Of a DNA stretch of 64,000 nucleotides, positions 7,522 through 49,722 are shown piece after piece; within the stretch, counting starts at the first letter, position 1, and each line of letters begins with the position of its first letter. This stretch comes from Escherichia coli (GTDB taxonomy: Bacteria; Pseudomonadota; Gammaproteobacteria; Enterobacterales; Enterobacteriaceae), in NCBI RefSeq assembly GCF_024502345.1, contig NZ_JALDNN010000001.1; one strand, 5' to 3'. The notes beneath the pieces were generated by a model. It searched no databases. It worked only from the letters and a program-made list of their open reading frames with translations, and was not told the origin of the DNA. Made by a program: the position numbers and the translations under genes.

Positions 7522-7795
7522 TGACCAAAAACCTCTTTGCGTCACATTTTTACAACAATTATTGCAGAGAAAATTAATGCTATTGGAATGAAGAGAGTAA
7601 CGAATGGCTAAACTGGCTAACCCGAATGACGAAAAATTCTGGAAAACAGCACGCAATTTCGTGAAGTGATTATTTTCGTCCCTAAGGAAACCTCATAGGA
7701 TGCCTGCGGGTGCCTGAGACTTTCTGTTTTCAGGCTAACCGGGAATCAGAAAGACGAAGGCCCCGACCGATATTTCTATCAACCGAGGCCAACGA

Positions 7796-8003
<208 letters not shown>

Positions 8004-8418: not shown

Positions 8419-8483
8419 CTTCCGATGTAGACCCGTATTCTTCGCCTGTACCACGGGTCGGTTTTAGTACAGGCGTTTTCTTT
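8419..8483 (+). ncRNA. rydC: RydC small RNA (Hfq-dependent pseudoknot sRNA)
   Basis: DNA CTTCCGATGTAGACCCGTATTCTTCGCCTGTACCACGGGTCGGTTTTAGTACAGGCGTTTTCTTT matches the remembered RydC sequence and ends in a T-run, next to cybB. Confidence 0.7.
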
Positions 8484-38779: not shown

Positions 38780-38808
38780 ATGCTCTGGATAAGGATTATC
38801 CAATTCTA

Positions 38809-38917
38809 AAAAAAAGCCCGGACGACTGTTCGGGCTTGTCTTTTTATATGTTGGAAAATCAGTGGCAATGCAATGGCCCAACAGAAAATAAAATCTGTGA
38901 CAATAAAGGCATATAAC
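38809..38917 (-). ncRNA. micC: MicC small RNA (porin-regulating, Hfq-dependent)
   Basis: The minus strand reads GTTATATGCCTTTATTGTCACAGATTTTATTTTCTGTTGGGCCATTGCATTGCCACTGATTTTCCAACATATAAAAAGACAAGCCCGAACAGTCGTCCGGGCTTTTTTTT, matching remembered MicC; divergent from ompN and sharing a bidirectional hairpin with the ydbK 3' end. Confidence 0.8.
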
Positions 38918-39144
38918 CCGCGCAGAATAACGTATAGAAAATTAAAAGTATAATTTTTATTTTGTATGTATTATCTTCGATACATTCACCAGACTTATTA
39001 TCATTTCAGAAGAATTATTTGATTAAGGTTTTACTTAAGGCGTAACAAATGATATTTATCGGCTAACTGAACTTCTCCTTTAGGATGTTTTCACTCCCCG
39101 GAATGGGGATAAAAGGCAAATAAAATAACTAAAGGATTTATTCA

Positions 39145-40278
39145 ATGAAAAGCAAAGTACTGGCACTTTTAAATCCTGCCCTGCTCGCCGCAGGTGCTGC
39201 ACATGCAGCCGAAGTTTATAATAAAGACGGCAACAAATTAGATCTGTATGGCAAAGTTGATGGCCTGCATTATTTTTCTGATAATTCAGCGAAAGATGGC
39301 GATCAGAGCTATGCGCGTCTGGGTTTTAAAGGCGAAACCCAAATTAACGATCAACTCACTGGCTACGGTCAATGGGAATACAATATTCAGGCAAACAACA
39401 CTGAATCTTCAAAAAACCAGTCATGGACCCGTCTGGCATTTGCCGGGCTGAAATTTGCAGATTACGGTTCTTTCGATTACGGACGTAATTATGGCGTAAT
39501 GTACGACATCGAAAGCTGGACCGATATGCTGCCTGAATTTGGCGGTGACTCTTATACCAATGCAGACAACTTTATGACTGGTCGTGCCAACGGCGTCGCG
39601 ACTTATCGTAATACTGATTTCTTCGGTCTGGTAAATGGTCTGAACTTCGCGGTGCAGTATCAAGGTAACAACGAAGGTGCCAGTAATGGTCAGGAAGGCA
39701 CCAACAACGGACGTGATGTTCGCCATGAAAATGGTGACGGCTGGGGTCTTTCCACAACATATGATTTAGGCATGGGCTTTAGCGCTGGTGCGGCATACAC
39801 CTCATCTGACCGCACCAATGACCAGGTTAACCATACTGCGGCGGGTGGTGATAAAGCAGACGCGTGGACTGCTGGGCTAAAATACGATGCTAACAATATT
39901 TACCTGGCAACCATGTATTCAGAAACGCGTAATATGACCCCGTTTGGCGACAGCGATTATGCTGTTGCAAACAAAACCCAGAACTTTGAAGTCACTGCAC
40001 AGTACCAGTTTGATTTTGGTCTGCGTCCGGCAGTCTCTTTCCTGATGTCTAAAGGCCGTGACCTGCACGCTGCCGGTGGTGCAGACAACCCGGCAGGTGT
40101 TGATGATAAAGATCTTGTTAAATACGCCGATGTTGGCGCGACTTACTATTTCAATAAAAACATGTCCACTTATGTTGACTATAAAATCAACCTGTTGGAT
40201 GAAGATGACAGTTTCTACGCTGCCAACGGCATCTCTACCGATGATATTGTCGCTTTAGGTCTGGTTTATCAGTTCTAA
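39145..40278 (+). CDS. ompN: Outer-membrane porin N (OmpC/OmpF family)
   Basis: 377 aa with a signal peptide and the general-porin C-terminus ...LGLVYQF. Confidence 0.9.
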
Positions 40279-40286
40279 ATCCTCCT

Positions 40287-40310
40287 GCCCGCTGTTATGG
40301 CGGGCTTTTT
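40287..40310 (+). terminator. Rho-independent terminator after ompN
   Basis: GCCCGC-tgttatg-GCGGGC followed by TTTTT. Confidence 0.6.
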
Positions 40311-40337
40311 CTGCTTATTCTTCCTCCTTTGATCTAA

Positions 40338-40853
<516 letters not shown>

Positions 40854-40860
40854 CACTAAC

Positions 40861-40885
40861 GCCCGCACATTGCTGCGGGCTTTTT
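40861..40885 (+). terminator. Rho-independent terminator after uspF
   Basis: GCCCGCA-cattgct-GCGGGC followed by TTTTT. Confidence 0.6.
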
Positions 40886-41028
40886 GATTCATTTCGCAAA
40901 TGTGCTGACATTTTCCCCTCTAATCCGTACCATACACGCCACTGTTTTTATATCAGATTTCTTATGCTGGGCATTCCGGCATGACGCATACTCTTCTGAT
41001 GCCATATAACGAATTGAGTCGCTTTTAA

Positions 41029-41964
41029 ATGTCGCAAAATCAAGAAATTAGTAAGAAAGAACAATACAACCTGAACAAATTACAAAAACGTCTGCGTCGT
41101 AACGTGGGCGAAGCCATTGCTGACTTCAATATGATTGAAGAAGGCGATCGCATCATGGTTTGCCTCTCCGGGGGTAAAGACAGCTATACCATGCTGGAGA
41201 TTCTGCGCAATTTGCAGCAAAGCGCGCCAATCAATTTTTCGCTGGTGGCTGTTAACCTCGATCAAAAGCAACCGGGCTTCCCGGAACACGTTCTGCCCGA
41301 GTATCTTGAAAAGCTGGGCGTTGAGTACAAGATTGTCGAAGAGAACACTTACGGTATCGTGAAAGAGAAGATTCCAGAGGGCAAAACCACTTGCTCACTG
41401 TGTTCTCGCCTTCGTCGCGGTATCCTTTATCGTACCGCAACGGAACTGGGGGCGACGAAGATCGCGCTGGGTCACCATCGTGACGATATCCTGCAGACGT
41501 TGTTCTTAAATATGTTCTACGGCGGCAAGATGAAAGGTATGCCTCCGAAACTGATGAGCGATGATGGCAAACATATCGTTATTCGTCCGCTGGCCTACTG
41601 CCGCGAGAAAGATATTCAGCGATTTGCCGATGCAAAAGCGTTCCCGATTATTCCGTGCAACCTGTGCGGTTCACAGCCTAACCTGCAACGTCAGGTGATT
41701 GCTGACATGTTGCGTGACTGGGATAAACGTTATCCAGGGCGTATCGAGACGATGTTCAGCGCGATGCAGAATGTGGTGCCGTCGCATCTGTGCGATACTA
41801 ACCTGTTCGATTTCAAAGGCATCACCCACGGTTCTGAAGTGGTTAACGGGGGTGATTTGGCGTTTGATCGCGAAGAGATCCCACTACAACCGGCGGGCTG
41901 GCAGCCAGAAGAAGATGAAAATCAGTTGGATGAGTTACGGCTGAATGTGGTTGAAGTGAAATAA
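41029..41964 (+). CDS. ttcA: tRNA 2-thiocytidine(32) synthetase
   Basis: 311 aa; SGGKDS PP-loop motif and CxxC motifs. Confidence 0.9.
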
Positions 41965-42011
41965 CCAAGATGGCGCCCGATGCGCAAGCGTATCGGGCTA
42001 CTCTTATGGAG

Positions 42012-42045
42012 GCCGGATAAGACGCGGCCAGCGTCGCATCCGGCA
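42012..42045. repeat. REP (repetitive extragenic palindrome) unit between ttcA and dbpA
   Basis: GCCGGATAAGACGCGGCCAGCGTCGCATCCGGCA. Confidence 0.5.
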
Positions 42046-42092
42046 ATCCCGAATAAGATGTTTACTCTTGCACCCGGCAATTCAACATTTCA

Positions 42093-43466
42093 TTATTTTA
42101 ATAACCGCACCCGGCACGTTTTTCCTTTAATCTTCCCGCCCTGTAACTGTTTCCATGCTTTATGAGCAACAGCCTGACGGACCGCGACATAGACATGCGC
42201 CGGATGCACGGCGATTTTGCCAATATCTGCGCCATCAAGCCCGATATCTCCTGTCAGTGCACCTAATACATCACCCGGGCGCATTTTGGCTTTTTTCCCG
42301 CCATCAATACACAACGTTGCCATTTCTGCTTCCAGCGGCACAATGGAACTATTAGCTGGCGGCGTTTGCCAGTTAAGTTTTATCTGCAACATGTCAGAAA
42401 TGATATTGGCCCGCTGTGCTTCTTCCGGAGCACAGAAACTGATCGCCAGACCGCTATTTCCTGCACGAGCTGTACGGCCGATGCGATGTACATGAACTTC
42501 AGGGTCCCACGCCAGCTCAAAGTTCACCACCAGCTCAAGCGATTTAATATCCAGACCACGCGCAGCAACATCAGTCGCAACCAGTACACGGGCGCTACCG
42601 TTAGCAAAACGTACCAGGGTCTGATCGCGATCGCGTTGCTCCAAATCGCCGTGTAATGACAATGCACTTTGCCCTACTTCATTCAGCGCGTCGCAGACAG
42701 CCTGGCAATCTTTTTTGGTATTGCAAAACACCACGCAAGAGGATGGCTGATGCAAGCTTAATAACCGTTGCAACAGAGGAATTTTGCCTTTGCTGGATGT
42801 CTCATAAAATTGTTGTTCAATGGGTGGCAAAGCATCTGTTGAGTCAATTTCAATCGCCAAAGGATCGCGTTGCACTCGTCCGCTGATTACGGCGATGGCT
42901 TCCGGCCAGGTTGCCGAAAACAGAAGCGTCTGTCGAGATGCAGGCGCAAAACGGATGACATCATCAATGGCATCGCTAAATCCCATATCCAGCATGCGGT
43001 CGGCCTCATCCATCACCAAAGTATTCAGCGCATCCAGTGATACCGTGCCTTTTTGCAAGTGATCCAGCAAACGACCCGGCGTTGCAACGATAATATGCGG
43101 CGCATGTTGCAACGAATCACGCTGCATACCGAACGGTTGACCACCGCACAACGTCAAAATTTTGGTATTTGGGAGAAAACGCGCCAGCCGACGCAATTCA
43201 CCTGCCACCTGATCCGCCAGTTCACGCGTAGGACACAGCACTAAAGCCTGGGTTTGAAATAGCGACGCATCAATTTGCTGTAACAAGCCGAGGCCAAAAG
43301 CCGCCGTTTTGCCGCTGCCGGTTTTCGCCTGCACGCGAACATCTTTTCCGGCAAGGATCGCCGGAAGCGCGGCGACCTGCACCGGCGTCATGGTTAAATA
43401 ACCCAACTCATTAAGGTTCGTGAGTTGGGCGGGAGGCAAAACATGCAGGGTAGAAAAAGCGGTCAC
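42093..43466 (-). CDS. dbpA: ATP-dependent RNA helicase DbpA (DEAD box, 23S rRNA-dependent)
   Basis: 457 aa; Q motif, AKTGSGKT Walker A and DEAD motif. Confidence 0.9.
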   Translation of the reverse strand: MTAFSTLHVLPPAQLTNLNELGYLTMTPVQVAALPAILAGKDVRVQAKTGSGKTAAFGLGLLQQIDASLFQTQALVLCPTRELADQVAGELRRLARFLPNTKILTLCGGQPFGMQRDSLQHAPHIIVATPGRLLDHLQKGTVSLDALNTLVMDEADRMLDMGFSDAIDDVIRFAPASRQTLLFSATWPEAIAVISGRVQRDPLAIEIDSTDALPPIEQQFYETSSKGKIPLLQRLLSLHQPSSCVVFCNTKKDCQAVCDALNEVGQSALSLHGDLEQRDRDQTLVRFANGSARVLVATDVAARGLDIKSLELVVNFELAWDPEVHVHRIGRTARAGNSGLAISFCAPEEAQRANIISDMLQIKLNWQTPPANSSIVPLEAEMATLCIDGGKKAKMRPGDVLGALTGDIGLDGADIGKIAVHPAHVYVAVRQAVAHKAWKQLQGGKIKGKTCRVRLLK

Positions 43467-43726
43467 AATCTATTCTCGTGGTCATCGACGCAAAGTTAGC
43501 AGGCGCGTATCCTCGCAGATCTACGCTCACGATGCGACAATTTAATCGGTTCTTCATCAGGTGGTGGGTCAGGCATGGGTTGCGGGCGAGGGATCGGATC
43601 GGGCACTGGAACAGGATCGCCAGGAATCGGTTCAGGGACAGGAATTTGCAAATAAATAAGTGTCGTCATATTTCCCTCCGGTCATTGGGTGGACTCTTAA
43701 AGGGTAGACGCTGATAAATAACAGGC

Positions 43727-43848
43727 AAAAAAAAGCCGACTCATCAAAGTCGGCGTCGTACGAATCAATTGTGCTATGCAGTAATTCAAAAAAGGAAGTA
43801 AGACAATATGGAGCGCAACGCCCATCGCTTGACGTTGCATTCACCTGC
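43727..43848 (-). ncRNA. fnrS: FnrS small RNA (FNR-activated, Hfq-dependent)
   Basis: The minus strand reads GCAGGTGAATGCAACGTCAAGCGATGGGCGTTGCGCTCCATATTGTCTTACTTCCTTTTTTGAATTACTGCATAGCACAATTGATTCGTACGACGCCGACTTTGATGAGTCGGCTTTTTTTT, matching remembered FnrS, with a terminal hairpin and T-run. Confidence 0.8.
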
Positions 43849-43943: not shown

Positions 43944-44948
<1,005 letters not shown>

Positions 44949-45181
44949 TTATTTTGTAGTCTAGCCTTCTGGCCCTGTTACGCAACATCTCATCACCCCA
45001 TTACCCTGAAATGATTAATAAAATTCTGTCTAAATTGAATACAAAAAGCAAAATGCTTTTCCGTATACAAACCGTGTGAAGTGTTAAATAGCGTCTATCA
45101 TTATCAGAATTATCTGATCATATGACGTGGCTTTTTTGCGATCGGATAGCAACAAAAATTGATAAAAATAACGGGATCTCA

Positions 45182-46414
45182 ATGATTACGCACAACTTCA
45201 ATACCCTGGACTTACTCACCAGTCCTGTCTGGATCGTTTCGCCCTTTGAGGAACAGTTAATTTATGCCAATAGCGCGGCGCGACTGTTGATGCAAGACCT
45301 CACGTTTAGTCAGCTACGAACCGGTCCCTATTCCGTCTCCTCACAAAAAGAACTGCCGAAATACCTCTCCGATCTGCAAAACCAACACGATATTATCGAA
45401 ATCCTCACTGTTCAGCGTAAAGAAGAGGAAACAGCATTAAGCTGTCGGCTTGTTTTGCGAAAGCTGACAGAAGCAGAACCGGTGATTATTTTCGAAGGTA
45501 TCGAAGCGCCGGCAACGCTGGGTTTAAAAGCCAGTCGCTCGGCAAATTATCAGCGCAAAAAACAAGGTTTTTATGCGCGCTTTTTTCTGACTAACTCTGC
45601 ACCAATGTTGTTGATTGCCCCCTCACGAGATGGCCAAATCGTCGATGCTAACCTCGCCGCGCTCAATTTCTATGGTTATAACCATGAAACGATGTGCCAG
45701 AAACATACCTGGGAAATAAATATGCTCGGGCGTCGCGTCATGCCTATCATGCATGAAATTTCGCATTTACCCGGTGGTCATAAACCTCTGAATTTTATTC
45801 ATAAGCTGGCGGATGGTTCGACTCGTCATGTGCAGACCTACGCCGGGCCGATTGAAATTTATGGCGACAAGCTCATGTTATGTATTGTGCATGATATTAC
45901 TGAGCAAAAACGGCTGGAGGAGCAGCTGGAACATGCTGCTCACCATGACGCGATGACCGGATTACTGAATCGGCGACAGTTTTATCACATTACGGAACCA
46001 GGCCAAATGCAGCATCTCGCCATCGCTCAGGATTACAGCTTGTTGCTCATCGACACCGATCGTTTTAAACACATTAACGATCTCTATGGGCATTCTAAAG
46101 GTGATGAGGTGTTATGCGCCCTCGCCCGCACCCTCGAAAGTTGCGCTCGCAAAGGCGATTTGGTGTTTCGTTGGGGAGGCGAAGAGTTTGTCTTATTGCT
46201 ACCAAGAACCCCACTGGATACCGCGCTTTCGCTGGCTGAAACTATCCGCGTAAGCGTGGCAAAAGTGAGTATTTCGGGCTTACCACGCTTTACCGTCAGC
46301 ATTGGTGTGGCGCATCACGAAGGAAATGAAAGCATCGATGAACTGTTTAAACGCGTTGATGATGCTTTGTATCGGGCGAAAAATGATGGACGCAACCGCG
46401 TGCTGGCGGCATAA
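45182..46414 (+). CDS. dgcM: PAS-PAS-GGDEF diguanylate cyclase (active site reads GGEEF)
   Basis: 410 aa from the internal Met, MITHNFNTLDLLTSPVWIVSP...; RWGGEEF motif. Confidence 0.8.
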   Translation: MITHNFNTLDLLTSPVWIVSPFEEQLIYANSAARLLMQDLTFSQLRTGPYSVSSQKELPKYLSDLQNQHDIIEILTVQRKEEETALSCRLVLRKLTEAEPVIIFEGIEAPATLGLKASRSANYQRKKQGFYARFFLTNSAPMLLIAPSRDGQIVDANLAALNFYGYNHETMCQKHTWEINMLGRRVMPIMHEISHLPGGHKPLNFIHKLADGSTRHVQTYAGPIEIYGDKLMLCIVHDITEQKRLEEQLEHAAHHDAMTGLLNRRQFYHITEPGQMQHLAIAQDYSLLLIDTDRFKHINDLYGHSKGDEVLCALARTLESCARKGDLVFRWGGEEFVLLLPRTPLDTALSLAETIRVSVAKVSISGLPRFTVSIGVAHHEGNESIDELFKRVDDALYRAKNDGRNRVLAA

Positions 46415-46434
46415 GCCGCGGATGCGTCTCGTGA

Positions 46435-46998
46435 TCAACGGCTGCGCTTAGCGTGGCGCTCCCAGTTTTCTTGCTTCGCCTGCGCCGTTTTACGTAGTGC
46501 GACATAACACGCCCCGCTGCCGCCATGATGCGGTAGCGCGGTGCAATATGCCTGAACATCATCAAATTCGGTCAGCCAGCGCGCCACATAGCTGCGGACA
46601 ATATTGGCATGCGATTTATCATCCCGCCCTTTACCATGAATAATCAGCACGTTACGCAAACTATCCGCCAGGGCTTGTTGAATGAAACTGAACACCATTT
46701 TGCGGCACTCTTCCACCGGCTGGCGCAAAAGATTCAGGCTCGCCTGTTGCGGATATTTACCACTGCGAAGCTTATCCAGCACCCCATGTTGCAACCCTTC
46801 CCGCCGAAACTCCAGCGGCTGACTTAGTGGGATGATGTCGAGAAATCCGGTGGTGAGGAAATTATCAAGCTGCAGCGTGTCGATACGCTGCGGCGCACGT
46901 TGGTTACGCGTTGGATGCCAGTGGACATCGGTAGCACGTTTCAGCGGCTGGACATCTTCCATGGCGTCAAGAAACAGCGATTTGTCGTCAAGGTTCAT
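46435..46998 (-). CDS. smrA: Smr-domain DNA endonuclease
   Basis: 187-aa ORF in the conserved position between dgcM and abgR. Confidence 0.75.
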   Translation of the reverse strand: MNLDDKSLFLDAMEDVQPLKRATDVHWHPTRNQRAPQRIDTLQLDNFLTTGFLDIIPLSQPLEFRREGLQHGVLDKLRSGKYPQQASLNLLRQPVEECRKMVFSFIQQALADSLRNVLIIHGKGRDDKSHANIVRSYVARWLTEFDDVQAYCTALPHHGGSGACYVALRKTAQAKQENWERHAKRSR

Positions 46999-47283
46999 GT
47001 TACATCCTCCCGCAATTAAGAGCGCGATATGATAACCAGACCGGGTCGGTCCAACAACGTATTACCCAAAATTCCAGTAATAAGTTCCAAATATTGCCGA
47101 TATTTTAAGCAAAATGCTTATGCATGATTATTCATTCACGATATTAATAATGTAACTTATATTTTCGTGAAATCTGTCACTGAAGAAAATTGGCAACTAA
47201 AGGTTAAAACCGTTATAACACAGTCACCGGCGCAGAGGAGACAATGCCGGACTTAAGACGCGGATGCACTGCTGTGTGTACTG

Positions 47284-47319
47284 TAGAGTCTGGCGGATGT
47301 CGACAGACTCTATTTTTTT
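47284..47319 (+). terminator. Strong plus-strand hairpin with T7 run and no plus-strand CDS upstream; possible sRNA 3' end (IsrA-like position)
   Basis: TAGAGTCTG-gcggatgtcga-CAGACTCTA followed by TTTTTTT; lies in the smrA-abgR intergenic region, where both flanking genes are on the minus strand. Confidence 0.35.
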
Positions 47320-47327
47320 ATGCAGTT

Positions 47328-48236
47328 TTAACTTTGCAGATAGCCGCATTCTCGCCGGAATTGCGTGATTAATGACGCGGTCAGTGGTGTCTGGCGACTA
47401 TCACGCCGCTGAATCAAATAATAGGCCGCTTTCGGTAAAATTTCGCTAACCGGCAACATCACCAGCCCCTGTCCATGCAAGGGATCGCAGCCCATTTCTT
47501 CAGGCAGTATGCTGAGAAAATCGCTTTTTGCCACCAGACTGATACAGGCTGAGAACGTCTCGCAGACTACACCGACCTGTGGCGTTTGCGCCTGATCGTC
47601 AAGCAATTCACTCAACTGTTTGTAGTAACTGCCGTGTGGCGTCGGCATTGTCCAGCTGTAATCCAGTAACTGTTTGATCGAACGGGCACCAATGGCGGGG
47701 TGTCCCGGGCGGCAAAAGATCGCGAATTGCTTTTCCAGTAATTTCTCAAAAGTAAATTCGTGGTCGTACGGTCCCTGATAATAGGTATTGATGGTGAAAT
47801 CCAATTCTCCCTGACGCAATTCATTAATCATCGACACCAGTTGCCCTTCCATAATGCGTACTTTTACCTGCGGATGCTGCTGATGAAAACGAGATATGAC
47901 AGCTGGCATCAGACTGCGGGAAATACTGGCCCCCATGCCGATATTAATCTGCCCTGCCAGTTGCCCTTGTCGTTGGCGAATATCCTCTTGGGCTGCGCGC
48001 AGCTCTTCAAGAATAAGACTGGCGTGCTGATAAAAACTTTCACCGGCATCAGTTAACGTCACGCCTTTACTACGGCGAAAAAAGAGTTGCGCCGCTAATC
48101 CTTCTTCCAGCTCCTGAATAGATTTACTCCGTGCCGGTTGCGACATATTCAACATTCGGCTCGCTCCGCGAATGCTGCCCTGACGAGCCACTTCAACAAA
48201 AGCCCGAATTTGATGAATTTTTACCTGAAAAGCCAT
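47328..48236 (-). CDS. abgR: LysR-family regulator of the abg operon
   Basis: 302 aa, MAFQVKIHQIRAFVEVARQGSIRGASRMLNMSQPARSKSIQELEE; divergent from abgA. Confidence 0.85.
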   Translation of the reverse strand: MAFQVKIHQIRAFVEVARQGSIRGASRMLNMSQPARSKSIQELEEGLAAQLFFRRSKGVTLTDAGESFYQHASLILEELRAAQEDIRQRQGQLAGQINIGMGASISRSLMPAVISRFHQQHPQVKVRIMEGQLVSMINELRQGELDFTINTYYQGPYDHEFTFEKLLEKQFAIFCRPGHPAIGARSIKQLLDYSWTMPTPHGSYYKQLSELLDDQAQTPQVGVVCETFSACISLVAKSDFLSILPEEMGCDPLHGQGLVMLPVSEILPKAAYYLIQRRDSRQTPLTASLITQFRRECGYLQS

Positions 48237-48411
48237 GACGCCACCGATAACCGTTATTTATCAGACCAAAGAAACTGGCATCTACTTTAATGCAGATGAT
48301 TGTGTCAGGGTAATTTATGAACGGTTAAAACTGTGAAAAATCAGTTAGTGATAAGTAAAAACTATCGCTACGTGAACCGGGTCACACTTTTTACTGATGA
48401 CGGGAAAGGTT

Positions 48412-49722
48412 ATGGAGTCTTTGAATCAATTTGTTAATTCGCTTGCCCCAAAATTATCGCACTGGCGACGTGATTTTCATCACTATGCAGAGTCTGGCTG
48501 GGTGGAATTCCGCACTGCCACCCTTGTTGCGGAAGAATTGCAGCAGCTCGGCTATTCACTGGCGCTGGGCCGCGAAGTAGTTAATGAAAGTAGCCGGATG
48601 GGACTACCTGATGAACTCACTCTACAACGCGAATTCGAGCGCGCTCGTCAACAGGGTGCGCTAGCACAATGGATTGCGGCTTTTGAAGGTGGTTTCACTG
48701 GTATCGTCGCCACCCTGGATACCGGTCGCCCCGGTCCGGTGATGGCTTTCCGTGTCGATATGGACGCGCTGGATCTCAGTGAAGAGCAGGATGTCAGCCA
48801 TCGCCCCTACCGCGACGGTTTTGCGTCATGTAACGCCGGAATGATGCATGCCTGTGGTCATGATGGGCATACCGCCATTGGGCTTGGGCTGGCGCATACC
48901 CTTAAACAGTTCGAGTCCGGACTACATGGCATCATCAAACTGATTTTTCAACCTGCAGAAGAAGGTACGCGTGGCGCGCGGGCGATGGTCGATGCAGGTG
49001 TAGTGGATGATGTTGATTATTTTACTGCCGTGCACATTGGCACTGGCGTACCTGCGGGCACCGTGGTGTGCGGCAGTGATAATTTTATGGCAACCACCAA
49101 ATTTGACGCGCACTTCACCGGGACCGCCGCTCACGCAGGCGCAAAACCAGAAGACGGTCACAATGCCTTGTTGGCGGCAGCACAAGCAACTCTTGCACTG
49201 CATGCAATCGCCCCGCACAGCGAAGGCGCTTCCAGAGTAAACGTGGGCGTTATGCAGGCAGGAAGCGGTCGTAATGTTGTTCCTGCCTCGGCGTTGCTGA
49301 AAGTGGAAACACGCGGGGCCAGCGACGTCATTAATCAATATGTTTTTGACCGTGCACAACAAGCGATTCAGGGCGCAGCAACCATGTATGGTGTCGGCGT
49401 TGAAATTCGTCTGATGGGTGCAGCTACCGCCAGTTCTCCTTCGCCGCAATGGGTCGCATGGTTGCAAAGTCAGGCGGCTCAGGTCGCGGGGGTCAATCAG
49501 GCCATTGAACGTGTCGAAGCGCCTGCGGGTTCCGAAGATGCCACATTAATGATGGCCCGCGTGCAGCAACATCAAGGGCAAGCCTCCTACATGGTGTTTG
49601 GCACACAGCTGGCGGCAGGTCATCACAACGAAAAATTCGATTTTGACGAGCAGGTTCTCGCTATTGCCGTCGAAACGCTGGCGCGCACCGCGCTCAATTT
49701 TCCCTGGACGCGAGGTATCTGA
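48412..49722 (+). CDS. abgA: p-Aminobenzoyl-glutamate hydrolase subunit A (M20 peptidase)
   Basis: 436 aa from the internal Met, MESLNQFVNSLAPKLSHWRRDFHHYAESGW...; its stop overlaps the abgB start (TGATG). Confidence 0.85.
   Translation: MESLNQFVNSLAPKLSHWRRDFHHYAESGWVEFRTATLVAEELQQLGYSLALGREVVNESSRMGLPDELTLQREFERARQQGALAQWIAAFEGGFTGIVATLDTGRPGPVMAFRVDMDALDLSEEQDVSHRPYRDGFASCNAGMMHACGHDGHTAIGLGLAHTLKQFESGLHGIIKLIFQPAEEGTRGARAMVDAGVVDDVDYFTAVHIGTGVPAGTVVCGSDNFMATTKFDAHFTGTAAHAGAKPEDGHNALLAAAQATLALHAIAPHSEGASRVNVGVMQAGSGRNVVPASALLKVETRGASDVINQYVFDRAQQAIQGAATMYGVGVEIRLMGAATASSPSPQWVAWLQSQAAQVAGVNQAIERVEAPAGSEDATLMMARVQQHQGQASYMVFGTQLAAGHHNEKFDFDEQVLAIAVETLARTALNFPWTRGI

Follow-up and report, generated by a model that had tools for sequence, protein, structure and literature searches.

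The terminator hairpin between smrA and abgR in a non-K-12 Escherichia coli genome is the 3' end of the known small RNA gene mcaS

The small regulatory RNA McaS (synonyms IsrA and IS061) was already known from the early screens for small RNAs and has since been characterized with respect to csgD, flhD, CsrA and pgaA, Hfq, and its association with RNA polymerase. Its transcription, its 3' end, its protein partners and its targets are established in the K-12 literature. van Nues et al. purified a ~90-nt RNA together with RNA polymerase from K-12 and obtained cDNA clones spanning all 94 nt, "including the 7 U's at the 3' end"; the 5' end of IsrA was resistant to kinase, as expected of the triphosphate of a primary transcript, and the RNA was confirmed by Northern blots and was undetectable in strains lacking Hfq (PMC4824073). 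In the same study, IsrA was modelled as three stem-loops, stem 2 pairing with csgD mRNA and determining RNA polymerase binding and the stem 3 loop mediating the up-regulation of flhDC, and the molecule's 5' third was already reported to be variable and the rest conserved (PMC4824073). cAMP-CRP reportedly activates McaS, which has csgD and flhD among its targets, repressing the former (curli) and activating the latter (flagella) (PMC3634460, PMC6061853); the published mechanism of csgD repression is base pairing followed by mRNA cleavage. McaS additionally sequesters CsrA through its GGA motifs, thereby raising PGA production (PMC10729762), and is counted among the class II Hfq-binding sRNAs (PMC9765468). 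With other members of that class, such as ChiX and CyaR, it has in common a hairpin followed by at least six U at the 3' end and a dependence on Hfq (PMC9765468, PMC4824073). With CsrB and CsrC it shares loop-presented GGA motifs that bind and titrate CsrA, although the scale differs, four motifs and two CsrA bound in vitro for McaS as compared to 22 motifs for CsrB (PMC10729762). Unlike CsrB and CsrC, McaS is also a base-pairing sRNA, and it belongs to a different Rfam family.

We analyzed a stretch of 64,000 nucleotides of E. coli DNA, hereafter the window, in which smrA (46435-46998) and abgR (47328-48236) both lie on the minus strand, as the initial annotation of this DNA had stated and as the list of open reading frames and the annotation of K-12 and of strain 120899 bear out. 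In the spacer separating these genes, direct reading of the plus strand gives TAGAGTCTG at 47284-47292, an 11-nt spacer GCGGATGTCGA and CAGACTCTA at 47304-47312, that is, a perfect 9-bp stem with TTTTTTT directly after it at 47313-47319; the initial description of a 9-bp stem and seven T residues at 47284-47319 is exact, coordinates included. The Rfam consensus structure lengthens the helix to 10 pairs by adding G47283-U47313 and proposes two inner pairs, C47294-G47302 and G47295-C47301, which leave a 5-nt apical loop, GAUGU. The plus strand therefore has the layout of an intrinsic terminator, a 10 + 2 bp stem (47283-47313) supported by the sequence, the Rfam structure and the fold, with seven U directly following. 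A consensus terminator scan whose loop limit was 3-8 nt did not flag 47284-47319, because the loop counts 11 nt before inner pairing and exceeds the limit of 8.

The hairpin is far more stable and the arrangement far rarer than chance would produce. Its local fold has an energy of -21.6 kcal/mol, compared to a mean of -11.4 for dinucleotide shuffles (z = -4.18), and none of 200 shuffles was as stable. When both strands of the 64-kb window were scanned with our own pattern (a perfect 9-bp stem, a loop of 3-13 nt and at least six T in the next eight bases), five overlapping matches corresponding to four distinct hairpins were recovered, whereas first-order Markov simulations searched in the same way yielded 0.02 expected sites per window. 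An inverted repeat lying by chance beside a T-run and having no function would be in keeping with the short length of the feature, the sole point in favour of such an explanation. It was rejected on the basis of the shuffle folds and the simulated counts, is further contradicted by the invariance of the site across genera and by the experimental mapping of the 3' end in K-12 (PMC4824073), and is given no credence here.

A scan of positions 46400-48400 against Rfam at a permissive threshold returned a single match, to RF00115 (McaS/IsrA RNA), on the plus strand at 47226-47321; the match spans the entire model (positions 1-96 of 96) with 117.6 bits (gathering score 42, E = 8.9e-23) and was also recovered when the whole window was scanned. 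All pairs are standard in the alignment of the window copy to the RF00115 covariance model, and the hairpin under study is the third helix of the RF00115 consensus together with the 3' U-run. The curated record of K-12 MG1655 lists the ncRNA mcaS (b4426, "small regulatory RNA McaS") at 1405658..1405751, flanked by abgR and smrA, both of which are encoded on the other strand. In reverse orientation, the 4.5-kb K-12 locus matches window positions 44477-48977 at 99.05% identity over 4501 bp and without a gap, which places mcaS at 47226-47319 on the plus strand and the 3' end of K-12 McaS on the last T of the run, precisely where the hairpin element ends. The gene thus occupies the orthologous site between abgR and smrA, in convergent orientation to the former and in divergent orientation to the latter.

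We conclude, with a probability of about 97%, that in the hairpin and U-run at 47283-47319 (+) the sRNA gene mcaS (47226-47319) has its Rho-independent terminator, stem-loop 3 of the RNA. No observation speaks against this identification. The feature is real and it is already known. The initial annotation had placed the 3' end of a plus-strand sRNA at about 47320 and had raised the possibility of IsrA; the annotated and cloned 3' end indeed falls on window position 47319 (PMC4824073), and the RF00115 match and K-12 b4426 settle the name. It had also called the terminator an orphan and proposed a transcript of 150-250 nt, neither of which holds, since the hairpin belongs to mcaS and the RNA measures 94 nt (47226-47319). 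As to the transcript being unannotated, this is incorrect for the curated K-12 record and correct for the 45 non-K-12 RefSeq E. coli records listed, in which no feature is annotated under the match; only curated K-12 lists the ncRNA. In the accessible portions of the supplementary data of PMC7815308 and PMC12207403, the Term-seq 3' ends include no mcaS entry or matching coordinate, which is uninformative either way.

Compared to McaS of K-12 (RF00115, b4426), the window copy has the same locus, length, boundaries, three stem-loops, four GGA motifs, terminator and 7-U tail. The two RNAs are identical at 93 of 94 nt, the sole difference being RNA position 27 (window 47252), a U in K-12 and a C here, which falls in the unpaired linker that follows stem-loop 1. 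The window allele matched the query at 100% in the top seven of 30 evenly spaced rows of the match ranking; this U27C allele is common and nothing functional is implied by it.

Within the Rfam structure, stem-loop 1 (47227-47250) makes up the variable 5' domain, its loop containing a GGA, and stem-loop 2 (47258-47277) is the element to which both the pairing with csgD mRNA and the binding of RNA polymerase have been ascribed (PMC4824073). The 5' UTRs of csgD and flhD, as base-pairing targets, are located outside the window. A motif scan located GGA at RNA positions 12, 24, 37 and 70, with window starts at 47237, 47249, 47262 and 47295, a count that agrees with the published four (PMC10729762); the fourth motif (47295-47297) lies in the apical region of the terminator. 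When the full-length RNA was folded, the centroid structure recovered stems 1 and 3, and the minimum-energy structure did not reproduce the three-stem model. Across nine homologues, 90.3% of the cells of the consensus structure are paired, as compared to 30-44% for slid controls. For the terminator pairs alone, 100% of the cells are paired and 11 of the 12 pairs are invariant, figures to be read with the fact that the homologue search pattern demanded the terminator loop sequence and so favoured an invariant terminator. The terminator stem displays no covariation in these nine homologues because it is nearly invariant, and covariation over the whole structure did not exceed that of shuffles with the same nine sequences. 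In their alignment, nucleotides 37-96, terminator included, show almost no variation and the 5' third varies strongly; within stem-loop 2, nucleotides 37-57 are nearly the same in Escherichia, Citrobacter and Pseudescherichia.

Two ATG-initiated open reading frames of 42 and 34 amino acids (47244-47372 and 47264-47368) overlap the element on the plus strand, and one could imagine that either encodes a small protein to which the hairpin is incidental. Both frames, however, run across the terminator and end 49-53 nt past the RNA 3' end, so that the 94-nt transcript would contain no stop codon for either. Moreover, at 47244 the B2-type strains EcN and E69, E. coli SCPM and E. albertii have AGG in place of ATG, at 47264 the Citrobacter homologue has ATA, and conservation follows RNA structure and motifs and not codons. 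The overrun of the terminator and the unconserved start codons led us to reject this candidate, which we regard as extremely improbable.

Upstream of the gene, the sequence suggests a sigma-70 promoter at 47190-47219 (+), with a -35 element TTGGCA (47190-47195), an 18-bp spacer and a -10 element TATAAC (47214-47219), from which transcription would start at A47226. Both hexamers are invariant in all aligned Escherichia sequences but one, that of Escherichia sp. ESNIH1, whose -10 is TAAAAT and which clusters with P. vulneris. A consensus promoter scan did not flag TTGGCA-18-TATAAC, because its rule demands a T at the last -10 position, which is a C here; the failure of the consensus scans to report the terminator or the promoter is no evidence against either feature. 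Further upstream lies a putative CRP site, cGTGA-N6-TCACt (47166-47181, +), identical in five E. coli sequences and with its half-sites also kept in E. albertii and in a Citrobacter metagenome-assembled genome (MAG). A CRP site at this place would fit the published CRP dependence of McaS. Its centre is at -52.5 from the annotated mcaS start. CRP canonically activates from -41.5, -61.5 or -72.5, and -52.5 is neither a classical class I nor a classical class II position; the site may have an unusual functional geometry, or it may serve another factor or the divergent smrA promoter. The promoter had initially been expected around 47100-47180; the candidate identified here lies downstream, at 47190-47219, and it is the CRP-like site that occupies 47166-47181.

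A start within 47100-47180 would have produced a longer plus-strand transcript of 150-250 nt, instead of or besides the 94-nt RNA. A weak promoter-like sequence, TTCACG-17-TATATT (9/12 matches), does occur at 47135-47163 (+) and, with the end at 47319, would correspond to a ~150-nt RNA. Such matches are unremarkable in this region, where five were counted as compared to 3.3 +/- 1.8 in shuffles. In addition, outside E. coli conservation collapses upstream of ~47150 and the proximal promoter block is kept, the K-12 annotation and the Rfam model both start at A47226, and the K-12 RNA is ~90 nt long with a 5' end at the annotated start that is consistent with a triphosphate (PMC4824073). We therefore consider a longer transcript to be highly unlikely.

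A 96-nt mcaS query found a match in 5367 of 5426 complete E. coli genomes. In ~1460 of them, with EcN, an APEC O1:K1:H7 strain and CCUG 73778 among the listed examples, the BLAST match began only at nucleotide 21. Alignment showed that these partially matching E. coli carry a full-length mcaS with an intact promoter and a rewritten stem-loop 1, in which compensatory changes affect the two innermost pairs, one of them on both sides (C-G to U-G and G-U to C-G), and the loop GGA is kept. From the strains listed, we presume that the ~1460 genomes with this EcN-type allele belong to phylogroup B2. Beyond E. coli, homologues scoring above the Rfam gathering score were found in E. albertii, the Citrobacter MAG, Pseudescherichia vulneris and Escherichia sp. 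ESNIH1. A pattern search of contigs with GNCNGGCGGATGTCGACNGNC was too permissive and returned at least 120 loci, mostly chance matches in GC-rich genomes, of which six enterobacterial loci among the matches listed were confirmed by Rfam; the taxa so recovered represent a minimum range, with a bias in favour of invariance in the terminator loop.

Some genomes depart from the common arrangement. At the EcN locus (NZ_CM187577.1, 2681152-2682027), and in the ~1460 genomes with the same McaS allele, mcaS and its promoter are kept in a rebuilt neighbourhood: a gene for an AraC-family regulator takes the place of smrA upstream, abgR is reduced to a pseudogene fragment, and this fragment is directly followed by ogt, so that abgABT is absent. 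In E. coli FDAARGOS_943 (NZ_CP065615.1, locus ~451-580), McaS homology breaks off within the terminator loop, ~130 bp ahead of an annotated IS4-family transposase gene (from locus position 580); mcaS has probably been disrupted naturally here, with loss of the 3' arm and the U-tail. Six of the 5373 McaS matches fall on plasmid-typed records, and at least one genome carries two copies; these may be true mobilized copies or artefacts of assembly or typing.

The same Rfam scan of the window recovered four other RNA genes above their gathering scores: FnrS (43731-43848, -, 134.8 bits), MicC (38800-38920, -, 125.3 bits), the Sok antitoxin RNA of a hok/sok-type locus (7708-7859, +, 111.5 bits) and RydC (8419-8482, +, 92.5 bits). 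FnrS and MicC are separated by ~5 kb in the window (38800-43848). In K-12 they lie ~28 kb apart with the Rac prophage and flanking genes between them, and the strain therefore appears to be without Rac at this place. The window is that of a non-K-12 E. coli, 99.05% identical to K-12 over the mcaS locus.

The position of the terminator raises the question of a second role on the opposite strand, where only 8 nt separate the McaS 3' end from the stop codon of abgR (47330-47328, -). An equivalent hairpin (-19.6 kcal/mol, z = -5.0) would form in the minus-strand RNA, and a consensus scan found no other terminator-like site for abgR between 47000 and 47328. These three observations speak for a shared two-way terminator, in which the hairpin would also form or stabilize the 3' end of the abgR mRNA. 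On the minus strand, however, the hairpin is followed by CAGUACACAC and not by a U-tract, and it is therefore not a canonical intrinsic terminator in the abgR direction. Such a dual use, which we hold to be unlikely, would add to the identification of the hairpin as the mcaS terminator and would not compete with it; any part of the hairpin in abgR 3'-end formation is speculative. Somewhat less probable still is that this hairpin is the only 3'-end or stabilizing structure of abgR and that abgR transcripts read through antisense across mcaS, with mutual interference as a possible outcome; if true, abgR and mcaS could interfere by transcriptional collision or by formation of an RNA duplex.

The identification of the hairpin as the McaS terminator fits the following course of events, in which expression of mcaS in this strain is predicted from sequence. 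RNA polymerase would start at A47226 from the presumed sigma-70 promoter TTGGCA-18-TATAAC, the reported activator being cAMP-CRP, and would terminate intrinsically in the U-run, freeing a 94-nt primary transcript with three stem-loops. In sRNAs with Rho-independent terminators, the hairpin and the oligo-U tail serve as an Hfq-binding module. The McaS hairpin with its 3' tail of seven U (47313-47319), known from the sequence and from the K-12 cDNA clones (PMC4824073), would likely be such a module. The terminator has a role beyond stopping transcription: its apical loop holds one of the GGA motifs as well as the stretch to which activation of flhDC has been ascribed. In this respect McaS goes further than sRNAs of the ChiX/CyaR type, since its terminator loop additionally holds the GGA and the reported flhD-activating sequence, which makes the terminator a part of the regulatory surface of the RNA as well.

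The identity, boundaries, structure and conservation of mcaS at this locus are direct observations, and the discovery value of the finding is little, the RNA being known. Its practical value lies in annotation: the gene is found in 5367 of 5426 genomes and is unannotated in the 45 non-K-12 records listed, and a reader working from sequence alone therefore rediscovers it as an orphan terminator. A terminator between two minus-strand genes, with no plus-strand coding sequence to which it could belong, is a reliable pointer to an sRNA.
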